Part shown: piece after piece, positions 7,736-41,981 of the stretch
Position numbering within the stretch: position 1 is the stretch's first letter
Layout of the letters: each line of letters opens with the position of its first letter
DNA from: Candidatus Thorarchaeota archaeon
Lineage (GTDB): Archaea > Asgardarchaeota > Thorarchaeia > Thorarchaeales > Thorarchaeaceae
Direction of reading: 5' to 3'
Assembly: GCA_004524445.1 (NCBI GenBank)
Contig: SDNP01000027.1
Span: 1 to 41,981, forward strand
DNA: 41,981 nucleotides
Made by a program: the position numbers and the translations under genes
Notes under the pieces: generated by a model
What the model was told of the DNA's origin: nothing
The model's database searches: none
What the model saw: the letters and a program-made list of their open reading frames with translations, nothing else

Positions 7736-9010
7736 ATGTGCATAGAAATAGGTGCAGGTGACTTTGACTCGAGTACTGCAAAATACGTAATTCGAGCGAA
7801 GATTGAGATTGACGGAGTAGTAGACAAACCCGATGTTATCGGCGCAGTCTTTGGACAAACTGAGGGCTTACTAGGAGAAGACTTGGATTTAAGGGAACTT
7901 CAGCGTACTGGACGAATTGGGCGGATACAAATCGCTATCAAATCGAAAGGAGGCAGTAGTCGGGGAGAGATTGTCATACCGGTTTCTTTGAATAAAACTG
8001 CCACTGCGATACTCGCAGCCGCATTAGAAACTGTAGACCGTGTAGGTCCCTGTTCTGCGAAAGTTACCCTTCAGAAGCTAGAGGATATTAGAGGCGCAAA
8101 GCGAAGACGGGTGGTCAGTAGAGCTATATCCATTCTCAAGGGCTGGGAGGATGAAATTGCTCCAGGAACTGAGGAAATCACTTCAGCCGTTTCCAAAGGG
8201 CGAAAGAGAACTGTGGCGAAATACGGACCGGATAGATTGCCCGCAGGTCCCGATTTCTCAAAAGCTGATGAAATTATCATTGTTGAGGGACGTGCGGATG
8301 TCATTAATCTCTTGAAGAGTGGTATTACAAACACAGTTGCAGTAGAAGGAACAAATATTCCAAAGTCAATTTCCAGTCTAACAAAGGAGAAGGACAAGAA
8401 GGTTGTGGCATTTCTAGATGGTGACAGAGGTGGCGATTTAATCCTCCGTGAGTTGATGCAAGTTGCAGATATAGACTTCATTGCTCGGGCCCCAGAGGGA
8501 AAGGAAGTTGAGAATTTGACTCATAGAGAGATAACCAAAGCACTACAGGCACAAATTCCAGCAGGTGAAGCCTTGTCCATTGTCAGCAAGAAACCCTCAA
8601 GAGAGCCAGAAAAAGCAAAATCGGTTTCTAAAGAGAGGAAGAAACCAGCAAAGACTGCATCCAAACCCGAGAGAAGGGTTCGACGGCCTAGACGAGAGCC
8701 TAAACCCACTAAGCCACAGGCATCTGTAGACTCAGAGTACCTCGGAAAATTAGATGATTTGAAAGAATCATTCAAGGCAGTCATCTATGATGAGAATAAG
8801 AACGTAGTCGAAGAATGCGGGGTAGCTGAGCTCGCCAAAAAATTGGAAACAATGGAAAAAGTGTCAACGATTTTGTTTGACGGAGTCGTAACACAGCGAA
8901 TCGTGGATACAGCAGGGGCAAAAGGTACAGAACTGGTCATTGCAGCTGCCAAATCGGACATAGAGAATAAGCCCAAACAGATGACAATTCTAACATATGA
9001 CGACTTGTAG
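7736..9010 (+). CDS. dnaG: Archaeal DnaG (TOPRIM; exosome-associated)
   Basis: DVIGAVFGQTEGLLG, LRELQRTGRIGRI, VEGRADV, FLDGDRGG. Confidence 0.96.
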   Translation: MCIEIGAGDFDSSTAKYVIRAKIEIDGVVDKPDVIGAVFGQTEGLLGEDLDLRELQRTGRIGRIQIAIKSKGGSSRGEIVIPVSLNKTATAILAAALETVDRVGPCSAKVTLQKLEDIRGAKRRRVVSRAISILKGWEDEIAPGTEEITSAVSKGRKRTVAKYGPDRLPAGPDFSKADEIIIVEGRADVINLLKSGITNTVAVEGTNIPKSISSLTKEKDKKVVAFLDGDRGGDLILRELMQVADIDFIARAPEGKEVENLTHREITKALQAQIPAGEALSIVSKKPSREPEKAKSVSKERKKPAKTASKPERRVRRPRREPKPTKPQASVDSEYLGKLDDLKESFKAVIYDENKNVVEECGVAELAKKLETMEKVSTILFDGVVTQRIVDTAGAKGTELVIAAAKSDIENKPKQMTILTYDDL

Positions 9011-35202: not shown

Positions 35203-35575
35203 CTAGAGTCGAATCGGGTTCGGTCCAATCTCTCGGATCTTCGCAGCAAAGTCGTTGATGTGTTTGGCGAACAAATCTCCCTCAGCCGCGCTGACGAACA
35301 CCATCTTCACTCGCTCCTTATTCATGCCCAGCTTATCGACCAACTCCCTGGCGAACCGCACTCGTCGTTCGGCCCCGAGGTTACCGGTCTTGTACGCACA
35401 ATCACCCGGGTGACAACCCACCACTAGCACACCGTCAGCACCTTCCTGCAGCGCTTTCATGATGAAGTTGATATCCATTCTCGCCGTGCACGGCATCCGG
35501 ATGATCCGCGCGCTCACGTCGTACTGCAACTTCATAGTTCCCGCTAGGTCCGATGCGGCGTACATGCACTGCATG
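35203..35575 (-). pseudogene. mvhD: 5'-truncated copy of hydrogenase iron-sulfur subunit MvhD
   Basis: Two aa differences from 37006..37422; lacks the first 15 aa including the first Cys of GCMQC; homology stops at 35575. Confidence 0.85.
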
Positions 35576-35583
35576 GTGGATTG

Positions 35584-36099
35584 CTAGTCACTCAGGTTCT
35601 TTGCAATAGATATTGCGCGCCTATAGACCTTTGAATCCAACCTGAATCCCAAATCAAGCATCCTATCGAGAATAGTTATGAACTCGTCATGTTGCAGTAT
35701 AGATTTGGATACGGCCTGGAGAAGGACACCAACAGTTCCCAGACATGTCACCCTCAGAATTTTTGCAGCACTTCTTCCCAACTTGTCGTCTATCAGGAGT
35801 AGACCATCCTCCTCCCTAGCCAGTAAGATAGCTGCAGCCTCCCCACTCTCAATCCCTGCGCTCTCGGCTAACTGATTCACTTCTTTATGAGCTGAATCTT
35901 CAACACCTAGCCATCCATCGTCCACTGCAGAAGCTATCAATAGTGCATCTGGCGACTCCTTAGACCCAGAAGTCTCTTGGAAGACTTTTCTCGGAATCAG
36001 AAGCTCGGTGTAGAGCTCCCTGAGCAGATGAAGTCGCCCAGCTTTAGCCAAGTAGATCAGCGGGCTTGCGTTACTGACCACTCTGATTTTCTTTGACAA
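35584..36099 (-). CDS. PIN domain toxin, DUF3368 family (start uncertain, 36099 or 36081)
   Basis: VSNASPLIYL, GEAAAI, LIDDKLGR, GTVGVL; overlaps the upstream antitoxin. Confidence 0.85.
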   Translation of the reverse strand: MSKKIRVVSNASPLIYLAKAGRLHLLRELYTELLIPRKVFQETSGSKESPDALLIASAVDDGWLGVEDSAHKEVNQLAESAGIESGEAAAILLAREEDGLLLIDDKLGRSAAKILRVTCLGTVGVLLQAVSKSILQHDEFITILDRMLDLGFRLDSKVYRRAISIAKNLSD

Positions 36100-36388
36100 G
36101 AGCAAGATCACGCTCCAAGTCCTCTTCATCATACGAGATGGGTATTGCGGCCTTATCCGCCTCCTCCATCATTTTTCTCAAGGGCATCCCCGCCATGGAT
36201 GCCGCTCTCCAGAGAGAGACCCTTCTCTCCCTGTATGCCTTGAGTGCTCTCTCCAAGAGAAACTGCTGAATGCCAATATCCAGTGCCCGTCGAATCATCT
36301 CCGATCTGTCAATGTGCTCCTCCTTGGCGATGAACTCCAGTTTCTTGATCATCTCATCGGGCAGTCGTGCTGTGACTGTCTCCATCAT
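36071..36388 (-). CDS. Antitoxin, RHH plus UPF0175 family
   Basis: TVTARLP...RSEMIRRAL RHH; VSLWRAASMAG; DLERDL. Confidence 0.85.
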   Translation of the reverse strand: MMETVTARLPDEMIKKLEFIAKEEHIDRSEMIRRALDIGIQQFLLERALKAYRERRVSLWRAASMAGMPLRKMMEEADKAAIPISYDEEDLERDLALVKENQSGQ

Positions 36389-36558
36389 CTATCGTATACA
36401 ATATATTATATTGTACACATAAGGATTTCTCTCCCTTTACTCAATCACATCCGTCAGTCAAAGAAGCCAATAGCCTCAATGCGTTGCCTCCCTTTCATTT
36501 CTATCGTAGGACTAGAAGGTGAAAACCACAAATAGCATTCAGTATCATCTTAGAAGAG

Positions 36559-37002
36559 GTGGATATAGTGAATATTCGTCCCTTCACTCCGGAGGATATC
36601 ACCCAGATTATTTCACTCACAAATGAGTATGCATCATTTGATTCCGATGTGACTGCAGCTGATTTTTCCTCTGCCCACGCCTTTCCTCAAGGCCTACTTG
36701 TGGCCGAAGCAGCCGGTCGTATTGTGGCATTCATATTTGGCTATATCAAAGAAGTACCAGGTACCATTCTCAATCGCTGGAATGCACAAAAAGCAGCTCA
36801 GATTAACCTCTTGGTAGTTGAACCGCCCTATCGGCGACAAGGTACCGGAGAGACATTGATGCGCAAGTTAGAAGATGCCTTCCGAGAAGAAGATGTGGAC
36901 CTAATTTTGCTTCACTGTCCCGCAGAAGCCACCGAGGCAAAACACCTCTATGACAAACTTGGTTTTGAGGTCCGTGCCTATGCCATGAAGAAACGCCTCT
37001 AA
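36559..37002 (+). CDS. GNAT family N-acetyltransferase
   Basis: VEPPYRRQGTGETLM, AKHLYDKLGF. Confidence 0.9.
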   Translation: MDIVNIRPFTPEDITQIISLTNEYASFDSDVTAADFSSAHAFPQGLLVAEAAGRIVAFIFGYIKEVPGTILNRWNAQKAAQINLLVVEPPYRRQGTGETLMRKLEDAFREEDVDLILLHCPAEATEAKHLYDKLGFEVRAYAMKKRL

Positions 37003-37005
37003 TCT

Positions 37006-37422
37006 CTAGAGCCGTATGGGGTTCGGCCCTATCTCCCGAATTTTCTCTGCAAAATCATTGATGTGCTTGGCAAACAAATCACCCTCAGCCGCGCTCACAA
37101 AGACCATCTTCACCCGCTCTTTATTCATGCCCAGCTTGTCAACCAATTCTCTCGCGAACCGTACTCGCCTCTCTGCTCCCAGATTCCCCGTCTTGTACGC
37201 ACAATCGCCAGGATGGCAACCAACAATCAAAACCCCGTCCGCCCCCTCTTGTAACGCCTTCATGATGAAGTTGATATCCATTCTCGCCGTGCACGGCATC
37301 CGGATGATCCGCGCGCTCACGTCGTACTGCAACTTCATGGTTCCTGCGAGATCGGATGCGGCGTACATGCACTGCATGCATCCCATGACGATGATGTTCA
37401 TATCTTTTGGAGGCATTGACAA
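37006..37422 (-). CDS. mvhD: Hydrogenase iron-sulfur subunit MvhD (full length)
   Basis: GCMQC, MPCTAR, GADGV...GCHPGDC, VSAAEG, GPNP. Confidence 0.93.
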   Translation of the reverse strand: MSMPPKDMNIIVMGCMQCMYAASDLAGTMKLQYDVSARIIRMPCTARMDINFIMKALQEGADGVLIVGCHPGDCAYKTGNLGAERRVRFARELVDKLGMNKERVKMVFVSAAEGDLFAKHINDFAEKIREIGPNPIRL

Positions 37423-37482
37423 TAACCATCCGTTGAGGGTAGAAATCAGCCTGCTGTTACTGACATATAATCTTTCAGATAG

Positions 37483-37911
37483 CTATTCTTCTGTCCGACC
37501 TTGTTCGTATAGCCATTCAGATAAGGATTCAACACCTTGTTCCGATAGCCTATAACCATCATCACACTCCTCAAAATATTGACTGTAATTGCCACGTGTT
37601 CCTGAAAACCACAAACTAACAGTTGATTGGTCTTTGCCAATTTCAGAAGCTATCGTGGTACCTGTTTTGCAGCTAGGATAGCAATCAAGGAGAGATAATA
37701 TCATTCCATTTCCTGTATTGACTTTGCTTGAAACTCTTCGCCCCTCTTCATCTTCTATCCAGTATGCTGAGGCTCGTTCCATCAGAGATTGGGCCAGTAG
37801 CCTGATTCTATTTCTAGTCTTGATTCTCTCTAGTTCAGATTTGGCATTTATCAGCTCAAGATATGCAGCCTCTAAGTCGGATATTTCCCGCGCTTGTACT
37901 TCAAGCTCCAA
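37483..37911 (-). CDS. Winged-HTH domain protein
   Basis: TIASEIGKDQSTVSLWF HTH, GYRLSEQG wing, N-terminal coiled coil. Confidence 0.65.
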   Translation of the reverse strand: MELEVQAREISDLEAAYLELINAKSELERIKTRNRIRLLAQSLMERASAYWIEDEEGRRVSSKVNTGNGMILSLLDCYPSCKTGTTIASEIGKDQSTVSLWFSGTRGNYSQYFEECDDGYRLSEQGVESLSEWLYEQGRTEE

Positions 37912-37982
37912 TTCCTCATCTCTAAACCTTAGAGTAATCTTGCGTTCATTCTCACCTATGAATACTCACCCAAAACAGAAAA

Positions 37983-38410
37983 ACCCTCTACATCTTATCT
38001 ATGCTTTGCAGCGCATAGTTTGACCTTCTGTAACCACTTGTGCTAATGTGATTGGCTGCATGCACCGACCCGAATCAGGTCTGTGTAGAGGGTGAGTGAA
38101 CCCCCTCAGTGACCGTCAACTCCCGTGTTCCACCCTGCTCGCGACTGCTGTCACCAGCGAGCGCGGGGACCTCTCCCCGAGCCTGTACACGAGCTTTATC
38201 CGAGCGGGCCTCGGATGGAGCTTCACTCCGCTGCACCCTATTGCCATGACTATCAGTAGCCTTGTGGGCGTCGATGGCGGCAGACGGCTGTTCCACGGTT
38301 CTTTCCACGGCAGGGTCGGTAGTGCTCACAAACTCTGCAAGCAGGGCCTGGTCATGGCACTCGGCCGCGGACCGTCCCCGTGAAGCTGATCTCTTCGAGG
38401 ACGGTTCGGA
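37983..38410 (-). ncRNA. Putative omegaRNA-like scaffold overlapping and following the TnpB 3' end
   Basis: Dense hairpins (CCGTCC/GGACGG, ATCCGAG/CTCGGAT, CGGGGA/TCCCCG, GCTCGC/GCGAGC, CTATGC/GCATAG), closing helix ACCCTCTACA/TGTAGAGGGT, then a U-run. Confidence 0.6.
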
Positions 38411-39859
38411 CTTCTCGTTAGAGCGTGTTCTCCTTCGAGCCTTCAAGCTTGCCTGTTTCTTCTCATGAGGAAACAACCAACGCTCTAGTCCGCTCTCATT
38501 CGCAAGTGAAGGAATGAGCTTGATGAGGCGCCGGGCGATATTGATGGCGCCGTTCTTGTCGGCATTGGAGCGATAACCGCAGGTGGGGCAGATGAAGAGG
38601 GACTGCTTGGGTCTGACCCCCTTGGAGCCACACCGGTGGCAGGTGATGGAGGTCCAGGACTCAGGAACAGGAACAAAGTGTGAACCCTTCCCATTTACCC
38701 TCCAGCCCTCCTGGACAAGAGTGTGCCTGAGTCCCTCGCTAACTCGCGCAAAGGTCCAGCGAGCAACTTTCTTTCTGAAGGACTTCCGCTTACCACTCTT
38801 TCTTCCTGCGCTACGGCGGATATGGGTGAGGCGACCGATGGCCACATACAGATTATACTTCTTTGAGAGCTCGAGGATGTGGTCAGTGAGCTCTCGAACA
38901 AGCACACCATCATAGTCGGTGCTGATGTTGGCACGGCGACTTCGAAGTTCCTTGAGCCGCTCGGCTACACCATCATATACTACACCAGCATTTTTTCGGT
39001 CACACATCTCCCGCTGCAGAGCATCTACCATCCCATCGTACCGTTCTATCTGACTAGCCTTGTCCGGTTGCGTGAAGTAGCGTACATACCTCACCCGTTG
39101 TTCAGTCAACACAACAGAACAGACCGCCTTGTCAATCCCAAGATCGATGCCCATGACTGCCGGAGGCAGACCGGTCATGTCAACCACCTCCACCTCCACT
39201 CTCACAGCAAACACAACCCACCATTTACGACGGACGTCCTTGAAGAGCCTCAGGGATGTCACCTCCCCCTCATCCAACCTGTTCAGATGGTAGGAAGAGG
39301 GAGTCAAAGGAATGAGCAATCTGTCATGAGTCCAGCTATCAGTCCGCGCCGAGTCCAAGGAGTCTAACAAATCAAGCCAATATTTTGTCTCCTGGCCCGG
39401 TCGGTACTCCAGTTTGAATCTTCTAGCATATACATACCGAGGCAGCTTTCGCTCCCGATATCCTTCTGACTTGAGGGGCGGCTGTCCATCCAATTCCAAG
39501 TAACTGTTCCACATAGCAACCGCAACTTGCCGACACTCCTGCAGCTCGTTGGTTGAGATGTTTGGGAATCTCTTCTTGAAGTCATGTGGAACAGATAGTC
39601 TATTCCTGGCTGGGTCTTTAAACCGCTCAGCTGTAAGGGTCAGCTTCTCCAGCGCTCCACCGTTGACCCGCTTTCGCTTCTTGCCAACAATGAGTTCTTT
39701 CTCGTGACGCGCAATGACCCCAAGAAACGCCCGGATGACTCGTGTATCCCGTCCGGTCAATCTCTCCAACCTAGACCTATCAGCATCACTCATGCAGTCC
39801 CACTTCACAGGAATTTTCACGCTGATGATTACAGTCTGGGTCTCGGGCATCGGCATCAC
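38075..39859 (-). CDS. tnpB: TnpB/Cas12f-like RNA-guided endonuclease with rearranged RuvC-II
   Basis: GIDLG (RuvC-I), VAIGRL, VPESWTS, CHRC/CPTC Zn finger, NADKNGAINIA (RuvC-III). Confidence 0.9.
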   Translation of the reverse strand: MMPMPETQTVIISVKIPVKWDCMSDADRSRLERLTGRDTRVIRAFLGVIARHEKELIVGKKRKRVNGGALEKLTLTAERFKDPARNRLSVPHDFKKRFPNISTNELQECRQVAVAMWNSYLELDGQPPLKSEGYRERKLPRYVYARRFKLEYRPGQETKYWLDLLDSLDSARTDSWTHDRLLIPLTPSSYHLNRLDEGEVTSLRLFKDVRRKWWVVFAVRVEVEVVDMTGLPPAVMGIDLGIDKAVCSVVLTEQRVRYVRYFTQPDKASQIERYDGMVDALQREMCDRKNAGVVYDGVAERLKELRSRRANISTDYDGVLVRELTDHILELSKKYNLYVAIGRLTHIRRSAGRKSGKRKSFRKKVARWTFARVSEGLRHTLVQEGWRVNGKGSHFVPVPESWTSITCHRCGSKGVRPKQSLFICPTCGYRSNADKNGAINIARRLIKLIPSLANESGLERWLFPHEKKQASLKARRRTRSNEKSEPSSKRSASRGRSAAECHDQALLAEFVSTTDPAVERTVEQPSAAIDAHKATDSHGNRVQRSEAPSEARSDKARVQARGEVPALAGDSSREQGGTRELTVTEGVHSPSTQT

Positions 39860-39864
39860 TCAAC

Positions 39865-39975
39865 GTACTTAAACTTCCGACCTGTCTTGTGTCAGAAGGG
39901 AGTTCACTCACCTCCATATCCAGCAGAGTGAATGATAACCTCCACACATTCTATATCATAATAGTACTTAAACTT
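39865..39975 (-). promoter_or_regulatory. Two identical BRE/TATA-like boxes upstream of tnpB
   Basis: AAGTTTAAGTAC at 39975-39964 and 39876-39865. Confidence 0.6.
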
Positions 39976-40103
39976 ATGAAGACTGTAGAGTTATGAACTC
40001 CTAATTTTCAATTCTAGGCACTCATATGCCTTATCTATTAAAACAGAGTAATAGTCGTAAAACCCGAGAAAGTATATATAAATAAACAATAAAAATGTAG
40101 AAT

Positions 40104-41981
40104 ATGGCTCATTTTGGGTCTCCCAAACAGCCAAACAAGGTCCTCATCACTGCCTTCAAGCGTGGGATGGCAGCGACATTGGCTCTCGCACGGGACCGTG
40201 CCATGGGAGCTGCCCGACCACTGTACTATGGGGATCACCGTGTGAAGGGCATGGCGAAGATCTGGGATGAGGCTAAGAACGCCTATCGAGAGACCCTTGA
40301 CCTGGATAAGCAGCGGAGGTCAGCCTCTTATCGACAGAGTTTCAGCCCCGACCAGCTGGAGGAGCTGGATAGGAAGGTCCTCCCTGACAGTAGACTTCTT
40401 CTAAAGGCGGAGAATAACATCCGGCGCAATTTCTACCGCATCATGTTGAAGACCGCCGTCAAATATGGCAACAAAGAGACCAAACGAGTCAAGCGTGGCG
40501 AGGGCCCACAGGGATACCTCAACCTTCTCTGGGACTACGCAGGCAGTAGAATCCGCGATGTCTGCAAGGCCCGGTACTTCTTTCCCCCGCCCACAGAGCT
40601 CAAGCTCGCAGACGGATCTGAGGGAGTAGGGTACCCTGCCCTCGGAGGACAGTCAGCATACTTGCTGAATCACGACAACCTCCCTGAACTGGACTTTGGA
40701 GACATGATACGAAGCCATCTGGTGGAGCTAGCAAGACAATGCATGAAGTACAATGTGCCTCTCAGGCCAGCCAAACGGTACATCGACCAGCTACTCAACC
40801 GGCTTCTTCCCTTTCTGGATTATGTCTACAGTGGAAGGAAGAGCGGTCGGTCCAACTTCGTGCGTGAGGGAACTGAAGAACTACGTGATGTGGTTGATAG
40901 AATCAGCATACTCTATGGCATGCGAAACGGCAGAGCTCCCTCTATCACTTCCATGGTTGCAGTCGATACAGAGGTGACACTGTCGGATGCTGATGCCCCT
41001 GTAGTTGAAGAGTATCCAGACGACCTCACTGAACCCCAATTCGAGCACACTCCTCAGACACCAGAAGAGAGTATCATAGCCTCTGATACGTCGGTCGAAG
41101 AAGATTTTGAGCAGTCAAAAAATCAGGACTTCTTCGCAACCCTTGTTGGTAGAGCGGAGGAGGAGGGTGTTGATGAGTGGAGTGATGCTCTGGATACACT
41201 CAAACAATTGTTGGATGACGGCATCTTAGATGAGGAGGACGCCGCACAGATTCTGAAACAGGCACAAGAGGAGAGCAGAAGAATCGGCAGCGCATTTCAT
41301 GACTTTGTATCAAAGGGCTTTCCCAGTCCCTTTGTGATGAGTGCAGTGGTCCATCATGGAGATGAGATGGTACAGGATAGGTCCGGCCTCCTGATAGTAT
41401 CCGAGTTGAGCGTTGCAGGAGGAAAAGGGCGAGTTGACCTCACAGTCTTCAGACGGAAACTTTTGCCAAGTGTGGATGCGACTCAACCAAAAGTCATCTA
41501 TGAACCCTGCATGGTTGTTGAGATAAAGACGAAGAGTGCTTTTGAAATCGATATCTACGGGGTGAGGTCTAAGAGTGAGAAGGAGAAGAACATTGTCAGT
41601 GAATTCCTGCTGGAGAGAAGAAGAATCACTGACAAAGAGTGGGCGGACATAAGGGCAAGCATCTCTCCCGGGAGTGTAAAACAGATTGAGCTATACCGTG
41701 AAGCCATGTTGAATGAGTATCAACGAGTGGGATGGATAGATCCGAGCCCACCAAACGAACTGATCAAAGCGGTTGTTCTGGTCGATTCAAAGGAAACGTG
41801 GAGTGCAGCTCGTGACGCATTGCATGCCCTGATTGTCGAGGGCTACGAGATGGTCATGAATAATGGAATCTCCACGGGCGACATTCTTCAGGTCAGCGAG
41901 AACGGAAGCCCGCTGAGATTAGCCATGCATATGGTATCAGATAGCTGTTCAGCCATCGAAGTTAAACCACCTGCTAAGAGA
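40104..41981 (+). CDS. Large protein (>626 aa, 3' end outside the window) with a RecB/Cas4-like PD-(D/E)XK nuclease domain
   Basis: Hand translation from ATG 40104 is open to the window end: MAHFGSPKQP...IGSAFHDF...IVSELSV..GKGRVDL...VVEIKTK...KQIELY. TATATAAA box at ~40075. Confidence 0.85.
   Translation, partial: MAHFGSPKQPNKVLITAFKRGMAATLALARDRAMGAARPLYYGDHRVKGMAKIWDEAKNAYRETLDLDKQRRSASYRQSFSPDQLEELDRKVLPDSRLLLKAENNIRRNFYRIMLKTAVKYGNKETKRVKRGEGPQGYLNLLWDYAGSRIRDVCKARYFFPPPTELKLADGSEGVGYPALGGQSAYLLNHDNLPELDFGDMIRSHLVELARQCMKYNVPLRPAKRYIDQLLNRLLPFLDYVYSGRKSGRSNFVREGTEELRDVVDRISILYGMRNGRAPSITSMVAVDTEVTLSDADAPVVEEYPDDLTEPQFEHTPQTPEESIIASDTSVEEDFEQSKNQDFFATLVGRAEEEGVDEWSDALDTLKQLLDDGILDEEDAAQILKQAQEESRRIGSAFHDFVSKGFPSPFVMSAVVHHGDEMVQDRSGLLIVSELSVAGGKGRVDLTVFRRKLLPSVDATQPKVIYEPCMVVEIKTKSAFEIDIYGVRSKSEKEKNIVSEFLLERRRITDKEWADIRASISPGSVKQIELYREAMLNEYQRVGWIDPSPPNELIKAVVLVDSKETWSAARDALHALIVEGYEMVMNNGISTGDILQVSENGSPLRLAMHMVSDSCSAIEVKPPAKR

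Follow-up and report, generated by a model that had tools for sequence, protein, structure and literature searches.

Can a TnpB protein that lacks the canonical glutamate of RuvC motif II still cut DNA, and if it can, does its active site tie it to the eukaryotic Fanzors? These questions are raised by a gene near the end of contig SDNP01000027.1 from Candidatus Thorarchaeota archaeon (GenBank assembly GCA_004524445.1), which we analyzed over positions 1 to 41,981. We refer to this whole stretch of 41,981 nucleotides as the window, and coordinates are within it unless another contig or locus is named. The gene, tnpB, is an open reading frame (ORF) of 594 codons on the minus strand (38075..39859), and its translation has 594 residues. 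An earlier note, made from the DNA sequence alone, had suggested that the nuclease site is rearranged as in Fanzors, that the enzyme is probably active, and that the host is an Asgard archaeon; the host is indeed a Thorarchaeota archaeon. We consider it probable, with some reservation, that the gene encodes a catalytically competent TnpB-type RNA-guided DNA endonuclease with a relocated glutamate, that it is part of a Thorarchaeota aCas1-TnpB element, and that it works by the mechanism proposed below.

The ORF product is a TnpB-type protein, as established by both family and fold. It matches NCBIfam's guided_TnpB (E = 8.4e-24; 84.5 bits, which is under the curated cutoff of 100 bits) across profile positions 69-389 of 389, and residues 391-441 match Pfam's Cas12f1-like_TNB (E = 2.6e-13). 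The product contains a split RuvC-like domain (motifs I, II, and III) in which a C4 zinc finger separates II from III. More than 569 homologs were found, and those with names are almost all from Candidatus Thorarchaeota metagenome-assembled genomes (MAGs). The AlphaFold2 (AF2) model, together with Foldseek and VIA comparisons, shows the bilobed fold of TnpB, with WED/REC plus RuvC. Foldseek matched the model to AsCas12f (1.5e-17), ISFba1 TnpB (8e-14), and ISDra2 TnpB (7.8e-12), and Fanzor2 ranked 20th. VIA structural Z scores were 14.6 to 17.5 across 320 to 380 residues, including 17.5 for AsCas12f, 15.6 for Fanzor2, and 14.7 for ISDra2 TnpB. The model's confidence (predicted local distance difference test, or pLDDT) is about 85 in the core and below 30 from residue 470 on. 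The codon pattern points to a similar boundary: across 71 ORFs of the family, third positions in the core are about 0.5 conserved, versus 0.7 to 0.85 for the first two positions. The folded and protein-constrained part is thus residues ~1-470, or ~38450-39859 on the minus strand. The start codon is likely the ATG at 39856 or the one at 39847; the GTG is less likely.

Both catalytic aspartates of the RuvC domain are intact. Asp239 of RuvC-I (GIDLG in AVMGIDLGIDK; 39143..39145, minus strand, as for all of the residues discussed here) is of the D-hydrophobic-G type, not DPG, and Asp434 of RuvC-III (NADKN in FICPTCGYRSNADKNGAINIARR; 38558..38560) lies in the NADxN form that is described as marking "derived" TnpBs (Altae-Tran 2023, PMC10691335). 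When phmmer aligned the protein to solved chains of the AsCas12f type, "iqmEdL" was placed against "vaiGrL"; therefore, the canonical position of the RuvC-II glutamate is occupied by Gly342 (VAIGRL in LYVAIGRLTHIR; 38834..38836). A glutamate is found 58 residues later, at Glu400 (VPESWTS in FVPVPESWTSITCHRCG; 38660..38662), six residues ahead of the first cysteine of the zinc finger. This CxxC...CxxC finger (38579..38641), which falls in the Pfam TNB domain, is formed by C407 and C410 in FVPVPESWTSITCHRCG and by C424 and C427 in FICPTCGYRSNADKNGAINIARR. The motifs are thus just as the earlier note had read them, from the two aspartates to the glycine and the displaced glutamate before the zinc finger.

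These positions are strongly conserved. In an alignment of 40 sequences with 46-91% identity, D239, G342, E400, T403, S404, the four cysteines, N432, A433, D434, and N436 are all invariant, and the combination DLG/G/E/D was read in 119 of 120 family proteins. We also compared the family profile to 1.84 billion cluster representatives (clustered at 50% identity), which gave 7,187 matches, and scored the best 80 that were long enough at positions 342 and 400. E400 is accompanied by Gly342 in 77 of these best 80 (with Ser342 instead in one of them). The three exceptions all lack E400: two have the canonical arrangement of E342 with A400, and one has T342 with A400. Reciprocal variation of this kind is expected if the loss of the catalytic residue at one site is compensated by its relocation to the other.

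The AF2 model places these residues at plausible sites. D239 ends strand 233-239, G342 is near the end of strand 336-343, E400 comes straight after strand 395-399 (beta-5), and D434 is at the N-terminal start of helix 433-448, which in the model appears to be the expected RNase-H topology. In Fanzor2, cryo-electron microscopy found that the triad of D324, E467, and D501 is bound to Mg2+ (PDB 9B0L). Family profile positions 285-439 align with residues 352-509 of chain 9b0l, and E400 and D434 correspond to profile positions 397 and 431, so by alignment arithmetic E400 falls on Glu467 and D434 falls on Asp501. The spacing from E400 to D434, at 34 residues, is the same as from Glu467 to Asp501 of ApmFanzor2.

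Judging from these motifs, the site is the arrangement published as Ealt, RIIr, or TnpB2. Ealt refers to a glutamate six residues ahead of the first zinc-finger CxxC and was defined by the pattern D{P}G-x(120,160)-E-x6-CxxC-x(12,18)-CxxC-x(4,8)-D (Yoon 2023, PMC10711439). Our protein fits this definition exactly, with D239-L-G, 158 residues, and then E400-x6-C407xxC410-x13-C424xxC427-x6-D434. RIIr clades are described as having glycine in place of the glutamate, with an alternative glutamate after beta-5 substituting for it, as in RuvX (Altae-Tran 2023, PMC10691335). The name TnpB2 was given to such proteins by Jiang 2023 (PMC10530073), who reported DNA cleavage by TvTnpB and by Fanzors with this site, loss of cleavage in the E467A mutant of ApmFNuc, and no collateral activity. 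The protein shares with these TnpBs the glycine at the canonical position, the alternative glutamate six residues before the zinc finger, the NADxN form of RuvC-III, and the D-hydrophobic-G form of RuvC-I. It differs in its partner gene, which encodes a Cas1-like protein and not a TnpA of the Y1 or serine type, and in its length: typical Ealt TnpBs have about 430 amino acids, and the ORF is about 150 residues longer because the frame stays open through an RNA gene (see below). Cas12f (AsCas12f, PDB 8J12) is the best match among solved structures in both sequence and fold, but Cas12f has the canonical RuvC-II glutamate and a CRISPR array, whereas here the glutamate is relocated and there is no array. 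Because the relocated-glutamate site is conserved under purifying selection, comparison with these enzymes gives good support to the view that the protein is likelier to be active than dead. The earlier note's prediction of an active enzyme, and its statement that this arrangement is already known from active nucleases, thus agree with our analysis.

The last ~125 codons of the ORF are an RNA gene rather than conserved protein. Beyond about residue 460, the three codon positions are equally conserved (0.6-0.77 in the 71 ORFs); this tail is predicted to be disordered, its codon periodicity is gone, and it overlaps a covarying, structured RNA. RNAalifold, when run on 37 loci, reported 38 base pairs in 7 helices. 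These positions are paired in 98.4% of cases, versus 35-52% with slid partners, and 24 of the pairs show compensatory changes, versus 5-13 in the slid controls; the observed values were reached by none of 500 shuffles. The probable omega-RNA scaffold spans 38120..38447 on the minus strand, over codons ~471-580, with its conserved helices at ~38123-38370. As expected for a TnpB locus, a structured omega-RNA overlaps the 3' end of the gene. One metatranscriptomic run contains a 370-nt contig, at a depth of 61.7, which covers exactly 38120-38447 and has Illumina adapters at both ends; contigs across the body of the tnpB ORF have depths of 2-15. This hints at a discrete RNA of ~328 nt that begins where the protein signal stops and that ends at ...GGAACACGGGAG. 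Four runs had no RNA-library contigs at 39875-40400 or below 38120, which says nothing about expression there. No Rfam family matches within 37400-40200, and the fold of the 328-nt RNA as a single sequence is no better than that of shuffles (z = -1.4), so the support for its structure comes from the comparative analysis. The tail of the ORF also contains a sequence that resembles a PIP box (QALLAEFV, residues 503-510, 38330-38353), in which Q504 is invariant and L507 is at least 90% conserved; this conservation is inseparable from that of the overlapping RNA.

Immediately past the end of this RNA, on the minus strand, are a conserved T (38119), a variable stretch of 17 nt (38102-38118), and then GTTCACTCA (38093-38101). 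The same layout recurs in related loci, and it is the pattern described at the 3' ends of the Cas1H-Asgard TnpB groups (Altae-Tran 2023, PMC10691335). In the related loci, the "hypervariable" stretch comprises 8-17 nt. Pairing between it and the nucleotides that follow the motif encloses the motif in a hairpin in 34 of 37 loci, with stems whose sequences differ between loci. We therefore read the stretch as the 5' arm of a hairpin, and it seems unlikely to be the spacer-like guide of the literature. In the window, the 3' hairpin lies at 38078..38114 on the minus strand, with GTTCACTCA in or beside its loop. Homology within the family ends sharply about 25 nt past the motif.

Upstream of tnpB and divergent from it is a gene on the plus strand (40104..41981) that runs off the end of the contig and encodes the first 626 amino acids of a giant protein. 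Searches of Pfam (including Cas1), NCBIfam, and PDB sequences with this protein found no match. However, structural comparisons with an AF2 model of the 626 residues (pLDDT 78) indicated two folds. Residues 1-260 have the fold of the Cas1/casposase catalytic domain (each of the 12 best structural matches is to such a domain, with Z of 8.9 to 13.0), and residues 276-615 have the PD-(D/E)xK nuclease fold of the MGME1/Cas4/RecB/AddAB type (Z of 6 to 8). The family alignment also shows the motif set GRxDLV...EIKTK...QLxxY. The gene appears to continue on another contig of the same genome (C9:2-3586), which would add 1,194 amino acids for a total of about 1,820. Proteins of this family have 1,500-1,900 amino acids and are encoded head-to-head with this family of TnpB in 47 of 82 loci, while tnpB is alone in about 19 loci that have at least 2 kb of upstream sequence. 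The TnpB family is multicopy in some genomes, and it is found with or without the giant gene. The genome itself contains no canonical Cas1 (PF01867). It also has no match to the Y1 (HUH) TnpA (PF01797), with the genome being 90% complete, and no such gene accompanies tnpB in the window, so the locus does not look like an IS200/IS605 element.

Some related loci have repeats around the element. In locus L068, an 83-nt direct repeat (558-640 and 7768-7850 of that locus, 7,210 nt apart) brackets the entire 7.2-kb pair of giant gene and tnpB. The repeat consists of a degenerate copy of the 3' hairpin plus the 3' part of a tRNA-Gly, and the pair looks as if it had integrated at the tRNA gene. A tRNA-Gly(tcc) directly follows the 3' end of tnpB in three related loci (L068, L073, and L082; in the latter two, near 7810-7905). 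A weaker flanking repeat is present in L036, and the other loci have none. In the genome studied here, the far end of the element is on contig C9, where no repeat rose above the shuffled control.

We therefore assigned the locus to the catalogued aCas1-TnpB (Cas1H-Asgard) elements, on the grounds of the Cas1-like partner and the matching pattern of T, variable stretch, and GTTCACTCA; nothing contradicts its membership in these groups as described by Altae-Tran 2023 (PMC10691335). As in Cas1H-Asgard-1 and -2, the host is a Thorarchaeota archaeon, a homolog of Cas1 is encoded beside tnpB, and the 3' end has the T/variable/GTTCACTCA layout; some of the related loci also appear to have flanking repeats. 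To that description we would add that the partner is a giant protein of ~1,800 amino acids with Cas1 catalytic and Cas4/RecB-like nuclease folds, that the "hypervariable" stretch of 8-17 nt is the 5' arm of a covarying hairpin and is unlikely to be a spacer-like guide, and that the motif recurs in inverted orientation ahead of tnpB, flanked by a pair of matched promoter-like boxes. The earlier note's reading of the locus stands for the active site, but it had overlooked both the aCas1-TnpB context and the RNA gene in the last ~125 codons.

The mechanism that we propose builds on the motifs, their conservation and reciprocal variation, the fold, the covariation of the RNA, and the folds of the partner, and from these we infer catalysis, RNA guidance, the location of the guide, and the role in the element. 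The metal-binding triad would be formed by Asp239 (at the end of beta-1), Glu400 (just past beta-5), and Asp434 (at the start of the RuvC-III helix), with Gly342 on beta-4 vacating the canonical position and so letting Glu400 reach the site. TnpB would bind the long structured transcript of the 3' end of tnpB itself (~38447-38120), and together they would probably cut DNA beside a transposon-adjacent motif. By doing so, TnpB would favor persistence or homing of the element, the role that it has in IS200/IS605, and the divergent giant Cas1-like/Cas4-like protein is likely the integrase or transposase. Several observations weigh against this proposal. The RNA evidence comes from Logan contigs, which may include DNA and do not give the strand, and the abundant RNA contig stops at 38120, short of any plausible 3' guide. 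A search for a guide with the 20-mers after the 3' boundary gave no second match in the window, even with as many as 5 mismatches allowed. Also, the genome has just one full copy of tnpB plus one fragment, and in the subgroup to which the window belongs, the position next to mvhD is conserved; a resident or domesticated gene would explain this as well as a mobile gene would.

If the gene is domesticated, it might be a regulator or part of a host-function module: TnpB and its RNA would recognize a copy of the motif in their own promoter region and control tnpB and the Cas1-like gene, instead of taking part in transposition. The motif copy in question is the left arm of an inverted repeat (GGTGAGTGAACTCCCT; 39897..39912, minus strand), which is 38-53 nt upstream of the start codon; over its 16 nt, it is 94% complementary to the right arm at 38091-38106 (minus strand), which lies in the 3' hairpin. 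The repeat arms of the element carry GGTGAGTGAAC. The same inverted-repeat layout was found in 34 of 80 related loci, with GAGTGAAC about 50 nt ahead of the start and GTTCACTC 1,770-1,953 nt later. This conserved repeat ties the 3' hairpin of the RNA to the promoter region. Around the left arm are two identical A/T-rich promoter-like boxes (39865-39876 and 39964-39975, minus strand, 99 nt apart), and in 32 of 34 loci, a 12-nt A/T-rich box just ahead of tnpB has a second copy 93-99 nt farther upstream. The two copies in a locus differ by one mismatch at most, even as the sequence of the box varies between loci. Both the matching of the boxes within each locus and the single-copy, syntenic tnpB of this genome's subgroup suit a regulator. 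However, the arms are a fixed family motif of ~11-16 nt, and past this shared motif there is no locus-specific complementarity between them (12.35 of 44 positions match within a locus, versus 12.04 across loci), so terminal repeats that are bound by a protein would fit equally well. The abundant RNA contig also stops ahead of the hairpin, other genomes have around ten copies of the family, and the family keeps the entire catalytic triad, which known repressors derived from TnpB have lost. Overall, we view regulation as unlikely. It is less likely still that the element uses two RNAs, with ~85 nt ahead of tnpB transcribed from a promoter of their own into an RNA that has GAGTGAAC in a loop, pairs with the GTTCACTCA hairpin at the end of the omega-RNA precursor, and directs the processing or control of that precursor. 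If that were true, a TnpB system that is physically coupled to a Cas1-like integrase would also have a tracrRNA-like partner, and it would be a living intermediate on the way from transposon TnpB to type V CRISPR. The conserved triad bears also on whether the RuvC site might be dead, with Gly342 a true loss of the catalytic glutamate, Glu400 a structural residue, and the protein a mere binder of RNA or DNA. The canonical glutamate is indeed missing, and inactivated derivatives of TnpB are common. But E400 is invariant in the family alignment and varies reciprocally with position 342, both aspartates and the zinc finger are kept, and Fanzor2 and TvTnpB are catalytically active with the identical arrangement, which makes a dead site quite improbable. 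We thus prefer a catalytically competent TnpB with a relocated glutamate.

How this TnpB is related to Fanzors is a separate question. The Ealt arrangement is common to Asgard TnpB and Fanzors, with identical spacing from the glutamate to the RuvC-III aspartate, and the host is an Asgard archaeon; Jiang 2023 (PMC10530073) speculated that some TnpBs were inherited at eukaryogenesis. Taken together, these points might suggest that an Asgard lineage of Ealt TnpBs is the direct (vertical) ancestor or the sister of eukaryotic Fanzors. However, Ealt arose in several clades of TnpB, and what sets apart Fanzors and the pro-Fanzors (their cyanobacterial, IS607-linked prokaryotic source) is that they join Ealt with a DPG form of RuvC-I, a pairing reported to be exceedingly rare (Yoon 2023, PMC10711439). 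The motif in our TnpB is DLG, and DPG is absent from all 298 family members and relatives that were compared. Neither a link to an IS607 serine TnpA or to eukaryotic transposases nor a eukaryotic, giant-virus, or cyanobacterial host was found: the partner is Cas1-like, and the hosts are Thorarchaeota and Heimdallarchaeota MAGs. Both the profile search and a search with distant profiles returned only prokaryotic Ealt TnpBs. The nearest named relatives outside Thorarchaeota are from Heimdallarchaeota, Hadesarchaea, Nanoarchaeota, Altiarchaeales, Bathyarchaeota, and similar archaea, and in an unrooted FastTree phylogeny, which was built without Fanzor sequences, the family from Thorarchaeota groups as a single clade amid the other Ealt clusters. 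When the family profile was compared to solved chains, the best match was Cas12f (E = 1.2e-14); Fanzor2 had E = 4.1e-8, and no Fanzor1 chain passed E = 0.01. Thus, Fanzor2 (ApmFz2) resembles our protein in its relocated glutamate and its overall fold, but its similarity is not above that of Cas12f in either sequence or structure, and neither the sequence nor the fold scores show an affinity that is specific to Fanzors. The special relationship that the earlier note thought worth testing is not supported, and descent of Fanzors from this lineage, or sisterhood with it, strikes us as extremely improbable.

The rearranged active site has been known since 2023, and to it this locus adds one member. 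Its value lies in its context: in Asgard aCas1-TnpB elements, a putative Cas1-type integrase with a Cas4-like nuclease fused to it is coupled to an RNA-guided nuclease, an association that bears on the way in which type V CRISPR systems came together. Also, because the Ealt enzymes that have been assayed so far lack collateral cleavage, the family is a candidate source of compact editors.

We also noted some minor features of the element and its surroundings. The matched boxes around the left repeat arm resemble the products of concerted evolution or a target-duplication-like repeat. A search of 16.6 kb of flanks for a third copy of the motif beyond the stop codon of the giant gene gave one match, with one mismatch; the motif copy at C9:3805 is inside a convergent ORF of 745 amino acids and is probably due to chance. 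On contig C57 of the same genome, there is a 5'-truncated, paralogous tnpB (L002:1315-2390) that has the 3' RNA and the GTTCACTCA hairpin and is beside a tRNA-His (L002:2224-2317, minus strand). The 5' part of tRNA-His and the region upstream of it are duplicated in inverted orientation (114 nt, 79%), and the fragment sits between the two arms.

Downstream of tnpB, a guide aimed at the neighboring mvhD was considered, but the identity of the tnpB 3' flank to mvhD is only 9 nt (TGCATGCAG), and such a guide is not supported. Between tnpB and mvhD is an ORF of 142 amino acids (37483-37911, minus strand) with no family match. In orthologous Thorarchaeota loci, mvhD comes directly after tnpB, so this ORF appears to be an insertion that is specific to this genome. 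Further along (35203-37422), two copies of mvhD (FlpD) flank a gene for a GNAT acetyltransferase and an RHH/UPF0175-PIN pair.

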